Source: a virus
Taxonomy: Duplodnaviria > Heunggongvirae > Uroviricota > Caudoviricetes
IMG/VR virus record: IMGVR_UViG_2681813268_000007
Length of the DNA: 10,234 nt
Strand: one strand, 5' to 3'
Below the pieces are notes generated by a model, which was given only the letters and a program-made list of their open reading frames with translations, searched no databases and was not told where the DNA came from. Below are positions 1-10,234 of the stretch, one piece after another (position 1 is the stretch's first letter; each line of letters opens with the position of its first letter). The position numbers and the translations under genes are program-made.

Positions 1-49
1 CCCCGTCAGTAGCTGAACAGGAGGGACAGCTGATAGAAACAGAAGCCAC
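1..49 (-). CDS. insA: IS1 InsA, N-terminal fragment only (start codon GTG at 49-47, runs off window)
   Basis: Minus-strand translation from 49 gives V/M-ASVSISCPSCSATDG, the InsA N-terminus. Confidence 0.7.
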   Translation of the reverse strand, partial: MASVSISCPSCSATDG

Positions 50-104
50 TGGAGCACCTCAAAAACACGATCATACACTAAATCAGTAAGTTGGCAGCAT
101 CACC
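1..104 (-). mobile_element. IS1 end (partial; element continues beyond window start), terminal inverted repeat at about 82-104
   Basis: Reverse complement of 1-104 matches the IS1 left end as I recall it (GGTGATGCTGCCAACTTACTGAT...GAGGTGCTCCAGTGGCTTCTGTTTCTATCAGCTGTCCCTCCTGTTCAGCTACTGACGGGG); one apparent mismatch near position 69 relative to my memory of the canonical sequence. Confidence 0.8.
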
Positions 105-155
105 TTTTGTCTCTATGTTGATATAACCGTTTGTACTTATAAACCTGGAGGCATC

Positions 156-368
156 GTGGAAAAAATAAAGAAACTATTTAGTAGTAAATACGCAGTCATA
201 CGTCGTGATGACCTGTCAGTTATAGTCGAAATGGATTACTTCCCTGAAACCAAAAAATCAATGATGTATCGTAATGGTCGAAAGGCAATTTTTTTACCGA
301 TGAGGGTAAGTGACATTATGGGAAATGATAAACTGCTGGATGAATTGCGAGTCAGAGCATCCTGTTAG
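156..368 (+). CDS. hypothetical small protein (70 aa), AT-rich moron-like ORF
   Basis: GTG start at 156 preceded by GGAGG (147-151); clean 70-codon frame; base composition visibly more AT-rich than neighbouring genes; no recognisable motif. Confidence 0.4.
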   Translation: MEKIKKLFSSKYAVIRRDDLSVIVEMDYFPETKKSMMYRNGRKAIFLPMRVSDIMGNDKLLDELRVRASC

Positions 369-392
369 TATTGGCATTAATTCTGGTATACT
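365..392 (+). promoter_or_regulatory. putative sigma70 promoter with extended -10 (TGgTATACT at 384-392; weak -35 TTAGTA at 365-370)
   Basis: Motif match only, read by eye; positioned about 50 bp upstream of the ATG at 440. Confidence 0.2.
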
Positions 393-439
393 ACATAACG
401 GGCTGAACACCCATTCTACTGCGCCAGCGGAGAACTACG

Positions 440-1039
440 ATGGCGCATATACAACTGATCAAACAAACCTCTTCCGGATTACTTCTCCCGGCGACGCCGG
501 AGAGTTGCGATTTTCTGCATCAAATCAAAACAGGTGAGTGGATACACGCAGACTTTAAGCGTGTGCGTAACTACGCATTCCACAAGCGTTTTTTCAAACT
601 CCTGCAACTGGGATTCGATTACTGGACTCCGGTCGGTGGGGCGATCACGCCTCGCGAACGAGAACTGCTGTCTGGTTTCGTTGATTACCTGTGCGAATCA
701 GTAGGTCGGGAACATACGCCAGCTCTGAGCGAAGCCGCAGAGCAATATCTGAATACAGTTGCGACACGCAGAACCCGGGATACGGCATTGCTAAAGTCGT
801 TTGAGGCTTTTCGCGAGTGGGTAACCATTCAGGCTGGATTTTACACCGAACATTTTTATCCGGACGGTAGCCGCGGGCGTCGGGCAAAATCCATCGCTTT
901 TGCGAATATGGACGAAACCGAGTTTCAGCAGGTTTATAAATCTGTTCTGAATGTGCTGTGGAACTGGATTCTGTTCCGTAAATTTTCCTCTCCGGAACAA
1001 GTCGAAAATGTGGCCGCGCAGCTGCTGGAGTTTGCGTAA
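440..1039 (+). CDS. conserved lambdoid nin-region protein of unknown function (DUF1367-like, 199 aa)
   Basis: ATG at 440 with GGAG 7 nt upstream; long clean ORF; stop overlaps next start (TAATG at 1037-1041); family name from memory, unverified. Confidence 0.6.
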   Translation: MAHIQLIKQTSSGLLLPATPESCDFLHQIKTGEWIHADFKRVRNYAFHKRFFKLLQLGFDYWTPVGGAITPRERELLSGFVDYLCESVGREHTPALSEAAEQYLNTVATRRTRDTALLKSFEAFREWVTIQAGFYTEHFYPDGSRGRRAKSIAFANMDETEFQQVYKSVLNVLWNWILFRKFSSPEQVENVAAQLLEFA

Positions 1040-1329
1040 TGGTGGATTTACGTAAAGCGGCGCGGGGGCAGATGTGCACCGTCAGAATTCCTGGCTACTG
1101 CAATCACGATCCGGAAACGTCTGTGCTGGCGCATTACCGACTGGCGGGAACGTGCGGAACAGCGATAAAGCCACACGATATGCAGGCAGCGATTGCCTGT
1201 AGCTCGTGCCACGATTTAATCGACGGGCGGGTAAAAACCAGCGATTACACCAAAGAAGAATTACGCCTGATGCATGCAGAAGGTGTTTTTCGCACACAAG
1301 AAATCTGGAGAAAGGAGGGATATTTATGA
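1039..1329 (+). CDS. ybcO: YbcO-like protein (DUF1364, putative zinc-binding nuclease, 96 aa)
   Basis: 96-aa product MVDLRKAARG...CTVRIPGYCNHDPETSVLAH...IACSSCHDLIDGR resembles DLP12 YbcO as I recall it, including its Cys/His pattern; translationally coupled on both sides. Confidence 0.7.
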   Translation: MVDLRKAARGQMCTVRIPGYCNHDPETSVLAHYRLAGTCGTAIKPHDMQAAIACSSCHDLIDGRVKTSDYTKEELRLMHAEGVFRTQEIWRKEGYL

Positions 1330-1880
1330 TTTACCCAACGAATACAGGAAAAAGCGGAGAACACCTTCGTCTCACCACGCTGGAAAGTGTCTGGATTCAG
1401 GGAAAACTACGTATGTGGGGGCGCTGGTCGTATATTGGTGGCGGTAAGACGGGGAATATGTTTAACCTGATGTTGACCTCTAAAAAGCTGACAAAAACGG
1501 CAATTAACGAGGCGCTCCGGAGGATGAAAAAAGCAGGTCTGAACAAGTCTGAACTTGAGGCTTTTTTGCGGGATATGATTAACGGTAAGCAAAAGAGCTG
1601 GCTGGCGCATTGTACTGATGCAGAGGCGTTATGTATTGATCGGGTCATAAGTGAGGTGCTGGCAGAGCATCCAGGATTGATTAGCGTCCTTCGGCAACGG
1701 TATGAGGGGCGGGGGATGACCAAACGCAAAATGGCTGAACTGCTGAATGATGCACACCCGAAATGGAGTTTAAGAACCTGTGAAAGACGCATTGAGCATT
1801 GGCTAAAGGTGGCAGAATTTATTTTGTACAAACCAATGGTTATGGCTTTTGGTATAGAGAAAAAAGTTATTGCTTTTTGA
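1326..1880 (+). CDS. putative late-gene antiterminator (Q-like, phage-82/QuuQ-type), 184 aa
   Basis: ATG at 1326 with AGGAGGGA upstream and ATGA overlap with ybcO-like stop; last gene before a strong terminator and the late region; N-terminal LRMWGRW resembles the LERWGAW motif I recall in QuuQ-type Q proteins. Assignment is positional plus weak motif. Confidence 0.5.
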   Translation: MIYPTNTGKSGEHLRLTTLESVWIQGKLRMWGRWSYIGGGKTGNMFNLMLTSKKLTKTAINEALRRMKKAGLNKSELEAFLRDMINGKQKSWLAHCTDAEALCIDRVISEVLAEHPGLISVLRQRYEGRGMTKRKMAELLNDAHPKWSLRTCERRIEHWLKVAEFILYKPMVMAFGIEKKVIAF

Positions 1881-1957
1881 CGTAAAAACTGCTTCAATTC
1901 TTGTACGCTTCGCAAAGCTGTACCGCGAGGCGAATAGCAGACATGGACATTTGAAAG

Positions 1958-1983
1958 AGCCCGCTTTATGCGGGTTTTTTTAT
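1958..1983 (+). terminator. rho-independent terminator (tR'-like) downstream of Q-like gene
   Basis: Stem AGCCCGC/GCGGGTT (1958-1964 with 1970-1976) with a 5-nt loop, followed by a T-run through 1981. Confidence 0.7.
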
Positions 1984-2069
1984 ACCTGAAAAACGGCACA
2001 GGACGTTAAACGTGCTGGTGGTCAGATGAGTTTGCAGATGTGATGACATATGGTTATTATTCTGCCTCC

Positions 2070-2146
2070 GGCCCTTTAGCTCAGTTGGTCAGAGCGAGCG
2101 ACTCATAATCGCCAGGTCGCTGGTTCAAGTCCAGCAAGGGCCACCA
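2070..2146 (+). tRNA. tRNA-Ile2 (anticodon CAU, lysidine type; formally could read as Met), 77 nt with encoded CCA
   Basis: Cloverleaf: acceptor GGCCCTT/AAGGGCC, D-stem GCTC/GAGC, anticodon loop CTCATAA, T-arm GGTCGCTGGTTCAAGTCCAGC; close to E. coli ileX as recalled. Confidence 0.85.
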
Positions 2147-2147
2147 A

Positions 2148-2224
2148 CCACCACTAGCTCATCCGGATAGAGCATCAACCTTCTAAGTTGACGGTGCGAG
2201 GTTCGAGTCCTCGGTGGTGGGCCA
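2148..2224 (+). tRNA. tRNA-Arg (anticodon UCU, reads AGA/AGG)
   Basis: Acceptor CCACCAC/GTGGTGG, D-stem GCTC/GAGC, anticodon stem TCAAC/GTTGA with loop CTTCTAA, T-stem CGAGG/CCTCG with TTCGAGT loop, G73 and CCA. Confidence 0.85.
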
Positions 2225-2226
2225 GC

Positions 2227-2302
<76 letters not shown>

Positions 2303-2305
2303 TAT

Positions 2306-2380
<75 letters not shown>

Positions 2381-2386
2381 GTCAGA

Positions 2387-2432
2387 GTCTTTCAGTCTGC
2401 GATGATGGGAAATCCCGGAGTGACTGAAAGAC
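2387..2432. repeat. perfect 11-bp inverted repeat (GTCTTTCAGTC / GACTGAAAGAC) with 24-nt spacer
   Basis: Direct inspection; arms at 2387-2397 and 2422-2432. Confidence 0.8.
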
Positions 2433-2439
2433 GTTTAAG

Positions 2440-2512
2440 TTATGAATGATCGCCTTTTTTTGCAAAATTGCTGTGCAGAAATACTAACCTTCGGGCGTGC
2501 GATCATTCATAA
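2440..2512. repeat. perfect 14-bp inverted repeat (TTATGAATGATCGC / GCGATCATTCATAA) with 45-nt spacer
   Basis: Direct inspection; arms at 2440-2453 and 2499-2512. Confidence 0.8.
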
Positions 2513-2605
2513 GCACTCTGCTTTTATTCCGATTAACTGTGGGTGGTTTGTTGGATAGAGTGTGAGGTGTACTGGCAATAGCGGACACTACCATTTGTTC
2601 TTTTT

Positions 2606-3424
2606 TTAAGCAGCCATCTGATGATATTTTTCCCTGAAGGCTGCCGGGGAGATATTCCCCAGACGAGAGTGACGACGCTGACGATTGTAGAAAATCTCAA
2701 TGTATTCCCGTATTACTGAGATGGCTTCATCCCGGTTATTAAAACGATAGTGGCTCAGGCTCTCATTTTTCAGCGTTCCCCAGAAGCTTTCCATCGGAGC
2801 GTTGTCGTAACAGTTACCTTTACGCGACATTGATGTTTTCAGACCAGACTGCTCCTGTATGACCCGGTAATCGTATGCGCAGTACTGTGAACCTCGATCA
2901 GAGTGGTGGATTAGCCCGGCAGGTGGGCGCTGGCTCCTGAGCGCCATAAACAGGGCTTTACCTGTCAGCTCTTTTGTCATGCGCTCTCCCATGGCGTAGC
3001 CGACAATTTCGCACGTATAAACATCTTTGATGCCAGCGAGGTACAACCATCCCTCCTGTGTGGCAACATACGTCAGGTCCGCCACCCAGACCTGATTTGG
3101 TGCTGTAGGAGCGAACGTCTGGTTCAGCAGATTTGGCGCAACTGGCAGATTGTGGTTCGAGTTCGTAGTCGCTCTGAACTTGCGTTTCTGCTTACAGCGT
3201 AGCCTTAGCTCCTTACGAAGACGTGCCAGTCGGTCACGACCAACGATGATGCCATTCTCTGCCAGCTCCGTCTGGAGCCGCCGGGTTCCATATGTTTCGC
3301 GAGTGCGGATATGTGCCACCTTAATCTCCAGTTTTAGCCGCTCATCACTTTGTTTTCTGTCTGAGGGTTCATGCTGTACCCAGTTGTAATAACCGCTCCT
3401 GGATACACCAAATACCTGACACAT
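2606..3424 (-). CDS. IS3-family transposase OrfB (DDE catalytic domain); in vivo made as OrfAB fusion by -1 frameshift, so the true frame extends upstream to about 3510
   Basis: 272-aa ORF with IS3-type OrfB sequence (MCQVFGVSRSGYYNW..., ending ...YDNAPMESFWGTLKNE...GNISPAAF); the -1 frame upstream of its Met reads SNSVFCTGVAEKYALIEQWRQQFPIEA, continuous with it. Confidence 0.85.
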   Translation of the reverse strand: MCQVFGVSRSGYYNWVQHEPSDRKQSDERLKLEIKVAHIRTRETYGTRRLQTELAENGIIVGRDRLARLRKELRLRCKQKRKFRATTNSNHNLPVAPNLLNQTFAPTAPNQVWVADLTYVATQEGWLYLAGIKDVYTCEIVGYAMGERMTKELTGKALFMALRSQRPPAGLIHHSDRGSQYCAYDYRVIQEQSGLKTSMSRKGNCYDNAPMESFWGTLKNESLSHYRFNNRDEAISVIREYIEIFYNRQRRHSRLGNISPAAFREKYHQMAA

Positions 3425-3459
3425 CGCTTCAATGGGAAATTGTTGTCGCCATTGTTCGA

Positions 3460-3762
3460 TTAACGCGTATTTTTCAGCGACTCCTGTGCAAAATACGCTG
3501 TTGCTTTTTTTAATATATCTCGCTCAAGGCGAGCTTCATTTAACGCCTTACGCAGTTGCAGAATTTCAGATTCCAGTTCAGCCACCGTGCGGGAACCAGG
3601 AGTACCGAGCCCTTTTCTGGCGGCGGTAACCCATTGTCCTAAAGTGCCTTCAGGAAGAGATAATCGGGAAGCGCCTTCACTGATCGAAAGTTGATTTTCA
3701 AGAACCGTTCTGACAGCTTCGGCTTTGAACTCTTTAGAGTAACGTTGGGTTTTTCTGCTCAT
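3460..3762 (-). CDS. IS3-family transposase OrfA (helix-turn-helix / leucine-zipper subunit), 100 aa
   Basis: MSRKTQRYSKEFKAEAVRTVLENQ... is typical IS3/IS600 OrfA; ATG at 3762 with GGAG-type RBS on the minus strand. Confidence 0.85.
   Translation of the reverse strand: MSRKTQRYSKEFKAEAVRTVLENQLSISEGASRLSLPEGTLGQWVTAARKGLGTPGSRTVAELESEILQLRKALNEARLERDILKKATAYFAQESLKNTR
3505..3511 (-). other. programmed -1 ribosomal frameshift slippery site (A7 run followed by G on the minus strand) joining OrfA to OrfB
   Basis: Plus-strand T7 at 3505-3511; OrfA zero-frame reads TTA AAA AAA GCA; OrfB-like sequence continues in the -1 frame. Confidence 0.7.
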
Positions 3763-3826
3763 TATTAGCTCCTTCTGATGCCATTCTATTTCAGGAAGGA
3801 GTGTCCGTTAAACTCAGGCTACCTCA

Positions 3827-3837
3827 NNNNNNNNNNN
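3827..3837. other. assembly gap (11 N) abutting the last base of the IS600-like element
   Basis: Run of n characters in the sequence. Confidence 0.95.
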
Positions 3838-3921
3838 CTGAAAAACGGCACAGGACGTTAAACGTGCTGGTGGTCAGATGAGTTTGCAGATGTGATGACA
3901 TATGGTTATTATTCTGCCTCC

Positions 3922-3998
3922 GGCCCTTTAGCTCAGTTGGTCAGAGCGAGCGACTCATAATCGCCAGGTCGCTGGTTCAAGTCCAGCAAGGGCCACCA
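3922..3998 (+). tRNA. tRNA-Ile2 (CAU), second copy
   Basis: Identical to 2070-2146. Confidence 0.85.
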
Positions 3999-3999
3999 A

Positions 4000-4076
4000 C
4001 CACCACTAGCTCATCCGGATAGAGCATCAACCTTCTAAGTTGACGGTGCGAGGTTCGAGTCCTCGGTGGTGGGCCA
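4000..4076 (+). tRNA. tRNA-Arg (UCU), second copy
   Basis: Identical to 2148-2224. Confidence 0.85.
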
Positions 4077-4078
4077 GC

Positions 4079-4154
<76 letters not shown>

Positions 4155-4157
4155 TAT

Positions 4158-4232
<75 letters not shown>

Positions 4233-4846
4233 GCGAGATTTGAGACGAAGGTTGTTATTTGCACTGACACAATATTGTGTGGGAATGTCTGACTCCTTAC
4301 CATCTCCTGTTCTGTGATGTTGTTTTGTTGCAGTTCCAGTGCTCTTTTTTCAGCACCAGAATGGTGCATTGTCGGTCAGGTTACGTAGTGAACCTCTGGC
4401 AGGGGACTGATGATTCATCATTCTGGTGTTGTAAATATCTCTTCGGACAACTTACAAAATATTCTAAGCAAACCCCGGGAACACACTCTTAACTGCCTTG
4501 GCTGGCGGTTTTTTGTACAGCGCTCGGTATGTGTGAGCTGGAAATCAGATTTTGCATGGACTGGAATCATGCTGTTATTTAGGGGCGAAGAACTGGCTTT
4601 TTCTTCCGCCTTCTCACCAGTAACGATTAGAAAAATAATGAAATGCCCCCCTCCGGGGAGGAGGACCGTAGAAAAAAGGACCCGCCAGCAAAAACATTGG
4701 GGATGAACAGCTTTCGCTACTCAGATTGCTGGCGGGTAAAGTTCCTCATGAATTAAGAATGCTACGCGATCTTTTTTAATGGAAATGAAAATTATTGTCA
4801 ATTAGTCGTGCGTGTTTTTTCATACAATATTGGTAAAGGTGATTCA

Positions 4847-4881
4847 GGCCATCAGAGTTTTGCTGATGGCCTTTTTTCTTT
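4847..4881 (+). terminator. rho-independent terminator about 30 bp upstream of holin gene
   Basis: Perfect 9-bp stem GGCCATCAG/CTGATGGCC (4847-4855 with 4863-4871), 7-nt loop, then TTTTTTCTTT. Confidence 0.75.
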
Positions 4882-4912
4882 CCGATAGCACAGGTCTGTC
4901 GGGGGGCGGGAT

Positions 4913-5128
4913 ATGTATCAGATGGAAAAAATATCAACAGGCATTGCCTACGGCACCTCCGCCGGCAGTGCCGGCTACTGGTTTTTGCAGTGGTTGGATC
5001 AGGTCAGTCCATCACAGTGGGCTGCGATTGGTGTGCTGGGAAGTCTGCTTCTGGGGCTTCTGACTTATCTGACAAATCTGTATTTCAAAATAAGAGAAGA
5101 CAAGCGTAAGGCTGCGAGAGGTGAATAA
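4913..5128 (+). CDS. S: phage-21-type pinholin S (71 aa) with dual-start motif (Met1 and Met4: antiholin and holin forms)
   Basis: [28 protein letters not shown]...[13 protein letters not shown] matches S21 as recalled; two hydrophobic segments; stop overlaps R start (TAATG at 5126-5130). Confidence 0.9.
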
Positions 5129-5625
5129 TGTCGCCATCATTACGCAAGGCTGTTGCAGCTGCTATTGGTGGTGGGGCTGTTGCTATAGCATCTGTGTTAA
5201 TCACTGGCCCAGGTGGTAACGATGGTCTGGAAGGTGTCAGCTACATACCATACAAAGATATCATTGGTGTATGGACTGTATGTCACGGACACACCGGAAA
5301 AGACATCATGCTCGGTAAAACGTATACCGAAGCAGAATGCAAAGCCCTCCTGAATAAAGACCTTGCCACTGTCGCCAGACAAATTAACCCGTACATCAAA
5401 GTCGATATACCGGAAACAACGCGCGGCGCTCTTTACTCGTTCGTTTACAACGTGGGCGCTGGCAATTTCAGAACATCGACGCTTCTTCGCAAAATAAACC
5501 AGGGCGATATCAAAGGCGCATGTGACCAGCTACGTCGCTGGACATATGCTGGCGGTAAGCAATGGAAAGGGCTGATGACCCGTCGTGAGATTGAGCGTGA
5601 AGTCTGTTTGTGGGGGCAGCAATGA
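5128..5625 (+). CDS. R: SAR endolysin (phage-21 R-type lysozyme with N-terminal signal-anchor-release domain), 165 aa
   Basis: N-terminal Gly/Ala-rich weakly hydrophobic SAR segment ([20 protein letters not shown]) followed by a lysozyme-like catalytic region (GLEG...YKD...WTVCHGHTG); coupled to S and Rz. Confidence 0.9.
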
Positions 5626-6086
5626 GCAGAGTCACCGCGATTATCTCCGCTCTGGTTATCTGCATCATCGTCCGCCTGTCATGGGCTGTTAATCATTACC
5701 GTGATAACGCCATTACCTACAAAGAGCAGCGCGACAAAAACGCAAGAGAACTGAAGCTGGCGAACGCAACCATTACTGACATGCAGCAGAGACAGCGTGA
5801 TGTTAATGCACTCGATGCTAAATACACGAAGGAGTTAGCTGATGCGAAAGCTGAAAATGAAACTCTGCGCGCTGATGTTGCCGCTGGTCGTCGTCGGTTG
5901 CACATCAAAGCAGTCTGTCAGTCAGTGCGTGAAGCCACCACCGCCTCCGGCGTGGATAATGCAACCAGCCCCCGACTGGCAGACACCGCTGAACGGGATT
6001 ATTTCACCCTCAGAGAGCGGCTGATGACGATGCAGATGCAACTGGAAGGGGCACAGGAGTATATCCGCACTCAGTGCATTAAGTAG
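5622..6086 (+). CDS. Rz: Rz i-spanin (inner-membrane spanin subunit)
   Basis: ATG at 5622 overlaps R stop (ATGA); N-terminal TM segment ([14 protein letters not shown]) then coiled-coil-like charged region; an alternative GTG start at 5610 is possible. Confidence 0.85.
5842..6024 (+). CDS. Rz1: Rz1 o-spanin (outer-membrane lipoprotein), embedded in the +1 frame within Rz
   Basis: Signal peptide with lipobox (LVVVGC), proline-rich stretch PPPPP; GGAG 7 nt upstream of ATG at 5842; lies wholly inside Rz in a different frame. Confidence 0.8.
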
Positions 6087-6128
6087 CCTTTTTATCGTGG
6101 TAAACATTTCGCAGGGTATGAGGTATTT

Positions 6129-6479
6129 ATGCCATCACTAATCCCACGTGCCTGCCGTAAGCGTGGATGTGCAGGTACAACCACAGACAGTTCGGGTTAC
6201 TGCGATAAACATCGCGGTGAAGGCTGGGTGCAGCACCAGCGCGGACTGAGCCGCCACCAGCGTGGCTATGGCTCAAAATGGACGGTGATTCGTGCCCGTA
6301 TTCTGAAGCGCGATAAAGGTCTGTGTCAGTTGTGTCTGCGTGTCGGTGTGGTGAGCGAGGCGAAAACCGTCGACCACATCATCCCGAAAGCGCATGGCGG
6401 AACAGACGCAGACAGCAACCTGCAGAGTCTGTGCTGGCCCTGCCATAAAGCGAAAACAGCGCGCGAACGAATCCGGTGA
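6129..6479 (+). CDS. HNH endonuclease (phage packaging-associated), 116 aa
   Basis: Cys-rich N-terminus (CRKRGCAG...CDKH) and HNH core (DHIIPKAHGG...N...LCWPCH); located immediately upstream of terminase genes. Confidence 0.85.
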   Translation: MPSLIPRACRKRGCAGTTTDSSGYCDKHRGEGWVQHQRGLSRHQRGYGSKWTVIRARILKRDKGLCQLCLRVGVVSEAKTVDHIIPKAHGGTDADSNLQSLCWPCHKAKTARERIR

Positions 6480-6501
6480 TAATTATTCTCACTTGTAGGG
6501 A

Positions 6502-6562
6502 GGGGCGGGGCAAATCCCTGTGACCTGACGTCTTCCGGACTGCCCGCCCCATCGTTTTTTTA
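6502..6562 (+). terminator. GC-rich imperfect hairpin (GGGGCGGGGCA ... TGCCCGCCCC) followed by a T7 tract; candidate terminator and/or part of the cos region
   Basis: About 10-bp stem with one bulge, 28-nt loop, then ATCGTTTTTTTA; sits between HNH and terS. Confidence 0.45.
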
Positions 6563-6600
6563 TACCCGCGAAAAATGAAATTTAACCAGGAGTGCCGCAT

Positions 6601-7095
6601 ATGGCTGGAACGGCGGGGCGTTCCGGGCGTCGCCCCAAGCCAACGGCGCGCAAGGCGCTGGCCGGAAACCCCGGCAAGCGAGCCCTGAACAAAGATGAAC
6701 CTGTTTTTACGCCCATCAAAGGTGTTGAGCCACCAGAGTGGTTCGCTGAAGAAGATCTCCCTCTCGCCACGATCATGTGGCAACTGACAACCAAAGAACT
6801 CTGCGGTCAGGGCCTGCTGTGCGTGACTGACCTGGCGGTACTTGAGCGGTGGTGCGTGGCCTATGAGTTCTGGCGACGTGCCGTGAAAAATATTGCCATA
6901 CAGGGCAACACCATCACCGGTGCAATGGGCGGCAGGGTCAAAAATCCGGAGCTGACCGCCAAAAAAGAACAGGAGTCCGAGATGAGCAGCACGGGGGCAA
7001 TGCTCGGACTCGACCCCAGCAGCCGCCAGCGTCTGATTGGCCTGGCGGGGCAGAAGAAAGCCACTAACCCGTTTCTGAAAATTATCGAATCATGA
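6601..7095 (+). CDS. terminase small subunit (P27/HK97-type), about 164 aa
   Basis: ATG at 6601 with AGGAG (6586-6590) upstream (in-frame GTG at 6592 is the alternative); basic N-terminus; product resembles P27-family TerS as recalled; ATGA overlap with terL. Confidence 0.8.
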
Positions 7096-8825
7096 GCCGG
7101 AAATCTTACCCCAACGTAAATGCTGCAAATCAGTATGCCCGGGATGTCGTGCGCGGAAAGATTGTTGCCTGCCAGTTTGTGATTCAGGCCTGCCAGCGCC
7201 ATCTTGATGACCTGATGGCGGAAAAAAGTAAGTCGTTTCGTTACCGCTTCGACAAGGACCTGGCTGAACGGGCCGCGAAATTTATTCAGCTGTTGCCGCA
7301 CACCAAGGGGGAGTGGGCATTCAAACGGATGCCCATCACGCTGGAGCCGTGGCAGCTATTTGTGATCTGCTGTGCGTTTGGCTGGGTCAATAAAGGCACC
7401 CGGTTGCGCCGCTTCCGGGAGGTGTACACCGAAATCCCCCGTAAGAACGGCAAATCAGCAATCTCTGCCGGTGTTGCCCTGTATTGTTTTGCCTGTGATA
7501 ACGAGTTTGGCGCGGAAGTGTATTCCGGTGCCACGACAGAGAAACAGGCGTGGGAAGTCTTTCGCCCGGCGCGACTGATGTGTAAACGCACACCCATGCT
7601 GACGGAAGCGTTCGGGATTGAGGTTAACGCCTCAAACATGAACCGTCCGGAGGATGGCGCGCGGTTTGAACCGCTGATCGGCAACCCAGGTGATGGTTCA
7701 TCACCCCACTGTGCCGTGGTTGATGAATATCACGAGCATGCCACCGATGCGCTTTATACCACAATGCTTACCGGGATGGGGGCGCGACGTCAGCCACTGA
7801 TGTGGGCCATCACCACCGCCGGGTACAACATTGAGGGGCCGTGCTACGACAAGCGGCGGGAAGTCATCGAGATGCTCAACGGCTCGGTGCCTAACGATGA
7901 ACTGTTCGGGATCATCTATACCGTTGATGAAGGTGACGACTGGACCGGCCCGCAGGTGCTGGAAAAAGCCAATCCAAATATTGGCGTGTCGGTTTATCGC
8001 GAATTTTTGTTAAGTCAGCAGCAGCGTGCGAAAAATAACGCCCGTCTGGCAAACGTCTTTAAAACAAAACACCTCAATATCTGGGTGTCGGCGCGTTCGG
8101 CGTATTTCAACTTGGTGAGCTGGCAGAGCTGCGAGGATAAATCACTGACCCTTGAGCAGTTCGAGGGGCAGCCGTGCATTCTGGCCTTTGACCTGGCGCG
8201 TAAGCTGGATATGAACAGCATGGCGCGACTTTATACCCGCGAGATTGACGGTAAAACGCATTACTACAGTGTGGCCCCGCGTTTCTGGGTACCGTATGAC
8301 ACGGTGTACAGCGTCGAGAAAAATGAAGATCGACGGACAGCCGAACGCTTTCAGAAATGGGTGGAAATGGGCGTTCTGGCCGTTACCGATGGTGCGGAGG
8401 TGGATTATCGCTACATCCTCGAGGAGGCCAAAGCGGCGAACAAAATCAGCCCGGTCAGTGAGTCACCCATCGACCCCTTCGGGGCGACCGGGTTGTCACA
8501 TGACCTTGCTGATGAAGACCTGAATCCCGTCACTATCGTCCAGAACTTCACCAATATGTCCGATCCGATGAAAGAGCTGGAAGCAGCGATTGAATCGGGA
8601 CGTTTTCATCATGACGGCAATCCCATCATGACCTGGTGTATCGGCAACGTGGTCGGCAAAAACATGCCGGGTAACGATGATGTGGTGAAACCCGTCAAAG
8701 AGCAGGCGGAAAACAAAATCGATGGTGCAGTTGCGCTGATTATGGCGGTTGGCAGAGCCATGCTGTACGAGAAAGAAGACACGCTGTCTGACCACATTGA
8801 GTCCTACGGGATCCGCTCGCTTTAA
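7092..8825 (+). CDS. terminase large subunit (ATPase plus nuclease), 577 aa
   Basis: Long ORF with Walker-A-like motif (PRKNGKS), acidic nuclease-type motifs downstream; coupled to terS. Confidence 0.9.
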
Positions 8826-8836
8826 CTGAGGTAATT

Positions 8837-9019
8837 ATGATCATGCTGATTCTCGCGCCTCTGGTGGGCGTGCTGGGTGCGCTTTTGCTGGCGTATGGTG
8901 CCTGGCTGATTTATCCCCCGGCGGGTTTTGTTGTTGCCGGGGCGCTGTGCCTGTTCTGGTCGTGGCTGGTGGCGCGATATCTCGACCGTACACGGCAGTC
9001 TGTCGGCGGAGGTAAATAG
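8837..9019 (+). CDS. small hydrophobic protein (60 aa, two predicted TM helices), unknown function
   Basis: ATG at 8837 with GAGGT 4 nt upstream; product [26 protein letters not shown]...[14 protein letters not shown] is strongly hydrophobic; its stop abuts the GTG I take as portal start. Confidence 0.45.
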
Positions 9020-10175
9020 TGTTCTTTTCGGGATTATTTCAACGAAAAAGCGATGTGCCGGTGACCACGCCAGCAGAACTGCTGATGCTATCGGGCTGTC
9101 ATACGACACCTATACCGGAAAGCGGATCAGTAGCCAGCGGGCCATGCGCCTGACGGCGGTCTATTCTTGCGTCAGGGTGCTGGCAGAGTCTGTTGGTATG
9201 CTGCCCTGCAGTCTCTACAAAATCAGCGGTACCCTGAAAACACGGGCGGTGGATGAACGACTGCATAAGTTGGTTTCGGCAAAACCTAATGGCTACATGA
9301 CACCGCAGGAATTCTGGGAGCTGGTTATTGTCTGCCTGTGTCTACGGGGGAATTTTTACGCCTACAAGGTAAAGGCACTGGGAGAAGTGGTGGAGCTTCT
9401 TCCGATAGATCCGGGCTGTGTGGAACCGAAGCTGAACAGCCAGTGGCAGCCGGTTTATCAGGTGACGTTTCCGGATGGTTCCGTGGATGTGTTGACCCAG
9501 AATGAAATCTGGCATGTGCGCACCCTGACGCTGGATGGACTTGTCGGGCTGAATCCCATTGCGTATGCGCGTGAGGCCATTTCACTGGCAGCGGCAACCG
9601 AGGAGCACGGTGCCAGGTTGTTTAGTAATGGTGCGGTGACATCCGGTGTGTTGCGTACGGAACAAAAGCTCACGCCGGATGCTTACGAGCGTCTGAAGAA
9701 AGATTTTGAGGAGTGTCACACGGGGCTTGGCAATGCTCACCGCCCGATGATTCTGGAAATGGGGCTGGACTGGAAGTCGATGGCGCTGAACGCCGAGGAC
9801 AGTCAGTTCCTGGAAACCCGCAAGTTTCAGCTGGAAGAAATCTGTCGTCTGTTCCGGGTGCCGTTGCACATGGTGCAGAACACCGATCGCGCCACCTTCA
9901 ACAATATCGAAGAGCTGGGGCTGGGATTTATCAACTATTCACTGGTGCCGTATCTGACCCGCATCGAACAGCGGATCAACACCGGACTGGTACGAAAAAG
10001 TAAGCAGGGCGTTTATTACGCCAAATTTAACGCCGGGGCGTTACTGCGCGGGGATATGAAGTCCCGTTTTGAAGCCTACGCCACCGGGATCAACTGGGGA
10101 ATTTACTCTTCCAATGACTGCCGCGACCTGGAAGATATGAATCCGCGTCCCGGTGGTGTAATGCCGATCAGTTAA
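9019..10175 (+). CDS. portal protein (HK97 family), with apparent frame disruption near 9079-9150: N-terminal 44 codons (GTG 9019 to stop 9153) in one frame, remainder (to 10175) in the adjacent frame; first in-frame ATG of the main frame is 9144
   Basis: Main frame contains the portal-like motif RAMRLTAVYSCVRVLAESVGMLP close to any possible N-terminus; GTG at 9019 has GGAGGT 5 nt upstream and encodes MFFSGLFQRKSDVPVTTPAEL; the span is not a multiple of 3. Confidence 0.7.
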
Positions 10176-10210
10176 GGATCAGTTGACCGATCCAGTGGCT
10201 GTGTAAGAAT

Positions 10211-10234
10211 CCGGAAACGCTCACTTGTTTCCGG
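10211..10234 (+). other. perfect 8-bp inverted repeat hairpin (CCGGAAAC / GTTTCCGG) after portal stop; context cut by window end
   Basis: Direct inspection. Confidence 0.4.

Follow-up and report, generated by a model that had tools for sequence, protein, structure and literature searches.

The portal gene of the prophage remnant described here is, very probably, an ordinary broken gene: a genuine 1-bp deletion lies near its start, and this lesion appears to be fixed in a defective phiP27-like remnant that is also cut by the insertion sequence IS4. The window, meaning the whole 10,234-nt stretch of DNA that was analysed, is the entire record CXEW01000162.1 of assembly GCA_001260755.1. It was noted that the window contains no uninterrupted full-length portal frame, as the frame changes at codon 21/22 and is cut at residue 380 of 413. 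The disruption is reproducible when set against intact orthologues and is accompanied by further lesions and module loss, which together are the two marks of a fixed pseudogene. Judging from the sequence, it is likely that no functional portal is made. A pseudogenising mutation was among the explanations put forward in the first-pass annotation, and it is the one that was upheld, with the deletion splitting the conserved N-terminus from the core, IS4 cutting the gene, and the head/tail module missing.

The split portal frame

By direct reading of the sequence, the ribosome-binding site and the ancestral portal start were located at 9008-9021 on the plus strand, comprising GGAGGT at 9008-9013, the 5-nt spacer AAATA, and a GTG at 9019-9021. 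The homologous GTG is the annotated start of the portal CDS in phiP27, SfIV, and E. coli A36, and in the window it shares bases with the TAG that ends the 60-aa ymfR-like ORF upstream (TAGTG). From this codon, both the ORF list and the codon listing give a stub of 44 codons (9019-9153, plus strand) ending in a TGA at 9151-9153, of which codons 1-21 represent the true portal N-terminus and codons 22-44 are out-of-frame read-through to the stop. The portal core is found in the adjacent frame, as part of a long ORF that ends at 10175. Within this core frame, three TTG codons occur at 8928-8934, all inside the ymfR-like gene, and scanning from these codons to the core identified the ATG at 9144 as the sole start codon; alternative start codons between 8934 and 9144 were considered and rejected, none having been found. 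The start, its spacing, the early stop, and the position of the first ATG in the core frame had all been called from the bare sequence, and each was found as described.

The position of the frame change was assessed by two comparisons. A four-way DNA alignment of the window with phiP27, E. coli A36, and SfIV contained a single gap in the window, at column 92, where CT-GC stands against CTGGC in the relatives. A GG doublet at about position 9081 has lost one G, with the ancestral CTGGC reduced to CTGC at 9080-9082 on the plus strand. The tblastn search with an intact portal that had been recommended for locating the frame change was carried out with the phiP27 protein, and it matched residues 1-21 to the 9019 frame and all later ones, as far as residue 380, to the other, with the change between residues 21 and 22, again at 9081. 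The first-pass annotation had expected a CTGGCTG-type loss around 9079-9090, and both comparisons agreed with this interval. When the G was re-inserted as a computed repair, the two frames fused to read PVTTPAELADAIGLSYDTYTGKRISSQRAMRLTAVY / TTPAELADAIGLSYDTYTGKRISSQRAMRLTAVY, in which the stretch PVTTPAELADAIGLSYDTYTGKRISSQRAMRLTAVY is identical to the fusion that had been predicted, and the repaired protein was identical to that of SfIV over PAELADAIGLSYDTYTGK. This demonstrates that reasoning from reading frames in the bare sequence had placed the lesion to within a few bases.

In the intact relatives phiP27, SfIV, and E. coli A36, the portal gene is a single uninterrupted frame of 1242 nt that starts at the same GTG and encodes 413 aa. 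This also bears on the possibility, raised as a potential refutation, that homologous portals might begin at the equivalent of the methionine at 9144; the close relatives instead start at the GTG. A phiP27/SfIV-type (HK97-family) prophage portal gene has thus lost one G, which shifts the frame after codon 21. Because of the loss at about 9081, frame 0 runs into the stop at 9151-9153, and the core is carried on in the -1 frame. Ribosomes that initiate at the normal GTG would read only 44 codons, which leaves the portal core without a start of its own.

We also examined where the conserved family domain lies relative to the ATG at 9144. In the intact portal, PF04860 begins at residue 47, four residues past the methionine of this ATG, while the match to TIGR01537 begins six model positions before it. 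Since both models begin near this methionine, a product restarted there would keep almost the whole family core. The ATG had been said to fall right on the motif and to give a truncated protein; the truncation was confirmed, while the motif itself starts slightly further downstream. Such a restart product would not include the 42-residue N-terminal extension, which is conserved in the close relatives compared.

A programmed -1 ribosomal frameshift joining the 9019 frame to the portal core had already been rated the less likely explanation, and we consider its probability to be close to nil. The two frames do share 9019-9153, and joining them would take a -1 shift, the common direction of programmed frameshifts. 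However, no X XXY YYZ heptamer was found in 9019-9153 in any phase, and the portals of phiP27, SfIV, and E. coli A36 are each encoded in a single frame, with the extra base also present in all of the E. coli matches listed. Shifting at any point other than 9081 would replace conserved residues, and the gene is in any case truncated by IS4 and has no partner genes beside it. The candidate was rejected on the basis of the heptamer scan and the single-frame portals of the relatives.

Recurrence of the deletion

A further alternative is that the deletion is a sequencing or assembly error, with the genome truly reading CTGGC and a single frame covering both the N-terminus and the core. The window is a draft scaffold built from short reads and has a gap of 11 Ns at another place, and the missing base belongs to a two-base run, both of which would be compatible with an error; a GG doublet, however, is not the kind of homopolymer that is prone to such errors. 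An independent assembly, made by Logan from run ERR028703, was identical over the 231 nt around the deletion, and the same 231 nt were identical in ten chromosome-level assemblies (L006-L015) from different projects. In addition, the 343-aa product was found in 1695 blocks of a public collection, of which 46 hold contigs longer than 1 Mb. Without the frameshift this product would not be the longest call, and IS4 supplies its last five residues, so that it exists only with both lesions. Given the identity of independent assemblies and the wide indexing of a product that depends on the shift, the deletion is taken as real, and the error explanation, which had also been offered at first, is extremely unlikely.

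One of the ten chromosome-level assemblies, L010 (CP022457.1), is Shigella sonnei 2015C-3566 (PMC6456863). Another sequence, CP037997, belongs to strain FC1653, described in a paper on clinical Shigella strains, and the plasmid name pSS1653 suggests that this strain is S. sonnei as well. From the sequence comparisons, the deletion is thus a genuine mutation that has become fixed in a lineage, one member of which has been identified as Shigella sonnei, the base call of the window being verified indirectly through the identical assemblies. The deletion and the IS4 junction together could serve as a lineage marker.

Among the 1315 complete E. coli genomes that carry at least 80% of the deletion-site stretch, none (0/1315) matched it at an identity of at least 99%. 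All of the E. coli matches listed span 143 bases against the 142 of the window and are annotated as an intact 'phage portal protein'. Exact-pattern scans of a collection holding one genome per species found neither the deleted allele nor a repaired allele bearing the window's own SNPs, and accordingly no intact direct ancestor of the allele was found. The scanned collection probably does not contain Shigella as a separate species, in line with the GTDB taxonomy.

It was also noted that, in L009 and L013, the terminase and several of its neighbours, including the chromosomal genes recN and nadK, were called as split ORFs. These splits look like uncorrected long-read indel errors rather than biology, and the 231 nt of the portal are still identical in both assemblies.

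The IS4 junction and the remaining prophage genes

The remaining portal frame extends from the ATG at 9144 to 10175 on the plus strand and encodes 343 aa, consisting of portal residues 43-380 followed by five IS4-encoded residues (VMPIS) and a stop. The portal is cut after ...NPRPGG, at residue 380 of 413, where the window reads GGVMPIS* and the phiP27-type protein reads GGDVYLTP..., so that the last 33 portal codons have been removed by IS4. The IS4 end occupies 10160-10234 (no strand assigned); from about 10154 onward the sequence is 100% identical to IS4 (InsG transposase record), and the contig ends inside the element. In complete genomes, the IS4 transposase gene is the next gene downstream of the portal remnant. 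Beyond IS4, these genomes carry either another IS followed by bamE-recN-nadK, or raiA-pheL-pheA-tyrA-aroF. The difference in chromosomal genes at the far side of IS4 implies IS-mediated rearrangements between strains.

Within approximately 6 kb downstream in the complete genomes, we found no portal C-terminus, prohead protease, or capsid gene. At the position of the head module, the terminase and the ymfR-like gene are present upstream as in phiP27 and SfIV, while neither a protease nor a capsid gene follows downstream. Because no head genes follow, heads could not be assembled from the remnant even with the frame restored, and the portal gene itself carries at least two inactivating lesions, of which the frameshift is one. 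The frameshift may represent neutral decay after the prophage became defective, or it may have been one of the inactivating events itself; either lesion may have come first.

The genes upstream of the portal are better preserved. The large terminase subunit (7092-8825, plus strand) is intact at 577 aa, carries PF03354 and PF20441, and is annotated as such in the relatives. The ymfR-like gene (8837-9019, plus strand), which lies directly upstream of the portal, is an intact frame in the ORF list encoding a small membrane protein of 60 aa, and its counterparts in the relatives are annotated as ymfR or membrane protein. The order of the neighbourhood is HNH endonuclease, P27-family small terminase (TIGR01558), large terminase, ymfR-like gene, and portal, which is a packaging module of the phiP27/SfIV/ST64B type. 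Over 4913-8825, the holin, lysozyme, Rz with an embedded Rz1 (5842-6024), HNH, and small and large terminase genes were all intact. As the terminase, HNH, and lysis genes are intact, decay is not uniform across the remnant.

It was further noted that, in the comparison with L011 (CP044191.1), nearly all of the 78 differences over 6.4 kb fell within a patch of approximately 900 bp at 5157-6053 covering the lysozyme and Rz/Rz1 genes. This suggests recombination in the lysis cassette.

An intriguing question is whether an N-terminally shortened portal could be produced from the ATG at 9144 by reinitiation after the stub and be kept for a host or satellite function. Termination-reinitiation is conceivable, because the ATG lies only 7 nt before the stub stop TGA at 9151-9153 (ATGCGCCTGA); the 343-aa product retains positions 2-321 of the 321-position Pfam model, and the sequence is invariant across many assemblies. 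However, direct reading identified no Shine-Dalgarno sequence before the ATG at 9144, the product has also lost its last 33 residues and ends in the five residues encoded by IS4, and the neighbouring genes include neither a capsid nor a protease as a partner. With just 2 mismatches separating the compared assemblies over 6.4 kb, the invariance gives no evidence of selection. We therefore regard a maintained short portal as very improbable. In a more elaborate form of this idea, the clipped portal (residues 43-380), reinitiated at 9144, would form a functional unit with the intact HNH, terminase, and lysis genes, which Shigella sonnei would maintain, perhaps to hinder or to take advantage of infecting phiP27/SfIV-like phages; this proposal is speculative and is given a slightly lower chance again.

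Under the preferred reading of a decayed gene, the locus should be annotated as a frameshifted, IS4-truncated portal pseudogene rather than as a 'phage portal protein' of 343 aa. Pseudogenes and IS-mediated prophage erosion are well known in Shigella genomes. The portal pseudogene is of an already known kind and brings nothing mechanistically new, adding one more case of prophage decay in the IS-rich, genome-reducing lineage of Shigella sonnei.

Portal relatives and the structure of the scaffold

The membership of the remnant in the portal family was assessed with profile and sequence comparisons. PF04860 matched the 343-aa remnant at 359.8 bits against a cut-off of 39.1 (E = 1.7e-107; model positions 2-321 of 321), and TIGR01537 (portal_HK97) matched it at 258.9 bits against a cut-off of 112.05 (E = 6.7e-77). 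The phiP27 orthologue matched the HK97 portal structure 8cez_A over residues 17-387 (E = 1.5e-53). By tblastn, the portal of the window was 93.6% identical in protein sequence to that of phiP27 over residues 5-380. At the DNA level, the segment 8800-10153 shared 93.8% identity with phiP27 and 88-89% with SfIV, SfII, and ST64B, and its identity to prophages in complete E. coli genomes was at most 93.6%. The matches point to a member of the HK97-type portal family by descent, closest to the phiP27/SfIV/ST64B group and here apparently a pseudogene.

The closest known portals are those of the Stx2e phage phiP27 (L38, NP_543090.1), the Shigella phages SfIV, SfII, and SfI, and the Salmonella phage ST64B. 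The window shares with these phages the order of small terminase of the P27 family, large terminase, ymfR-like gene, and portal, as well as the same GTG start and ribosome-binding site. In these phages, an intact portal of 413 codons is followed by the prohead protease and capsid genes, whereas the copy in the window is one base short at codon 22 and has lost its last 33 codons along with the downstream head genes. The HK97 portal protein gp3 (8cez, 8fql) belongs to the same family as a distant homologue of this pseudogene copy. In E. coli K-12, the e14 portal fragment beeE adjoins ymfR. This fragment and the prophage pseudogenes of IS-rich Shigella genomes present a similar picture, namely a portal beside ymfR that is inactivated in a defective prophage and flanked by IS elements; unlike in those cases, the 1-bp deletion at 9081 and the IS4 cut at codon 380 are specific to the present lineage.

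The eleven Ns at 3827-3837 indicate that the window is a scaffold of two pieces. The left piece (1-3826) was 100% identical to complete genomes at about 1.95 Mb, beside lambda-like tail genes (e.g., GCA_965230885.1), and the right piece (3838-10234) was located at about 0.89 Mb in the same complete genome. Either the scaffolder joined them wrongly across repeats, or an IS600-mediated rearrangement brought them together in this strain. The portal finding is unaffected by the join, because it lies well inside the right piece.

Two 100% identical copies of a 396-bp segment, at 1986-2381 and 3838-4233, each contain four tRNAs, Met(CAT), Arg(TCT), Thr(TGT), and Gly(TCC). One of these arrays is located after a Q-like antiterminator gene and the other ahead of the lysis cassette, and in complete genomes they belong to two different prophage remnants. 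The duplicate arrays probably misled the scaffolder. The left piece ends in a complete 1264-bp element of the IS3 family on the minus strand (2563-3826), with overlapping transposase ORFs at 3460-3762 and 2606-3424. This element, which we take from its protein sequences to be IS600, is present in multiple copies in related chromosomes.
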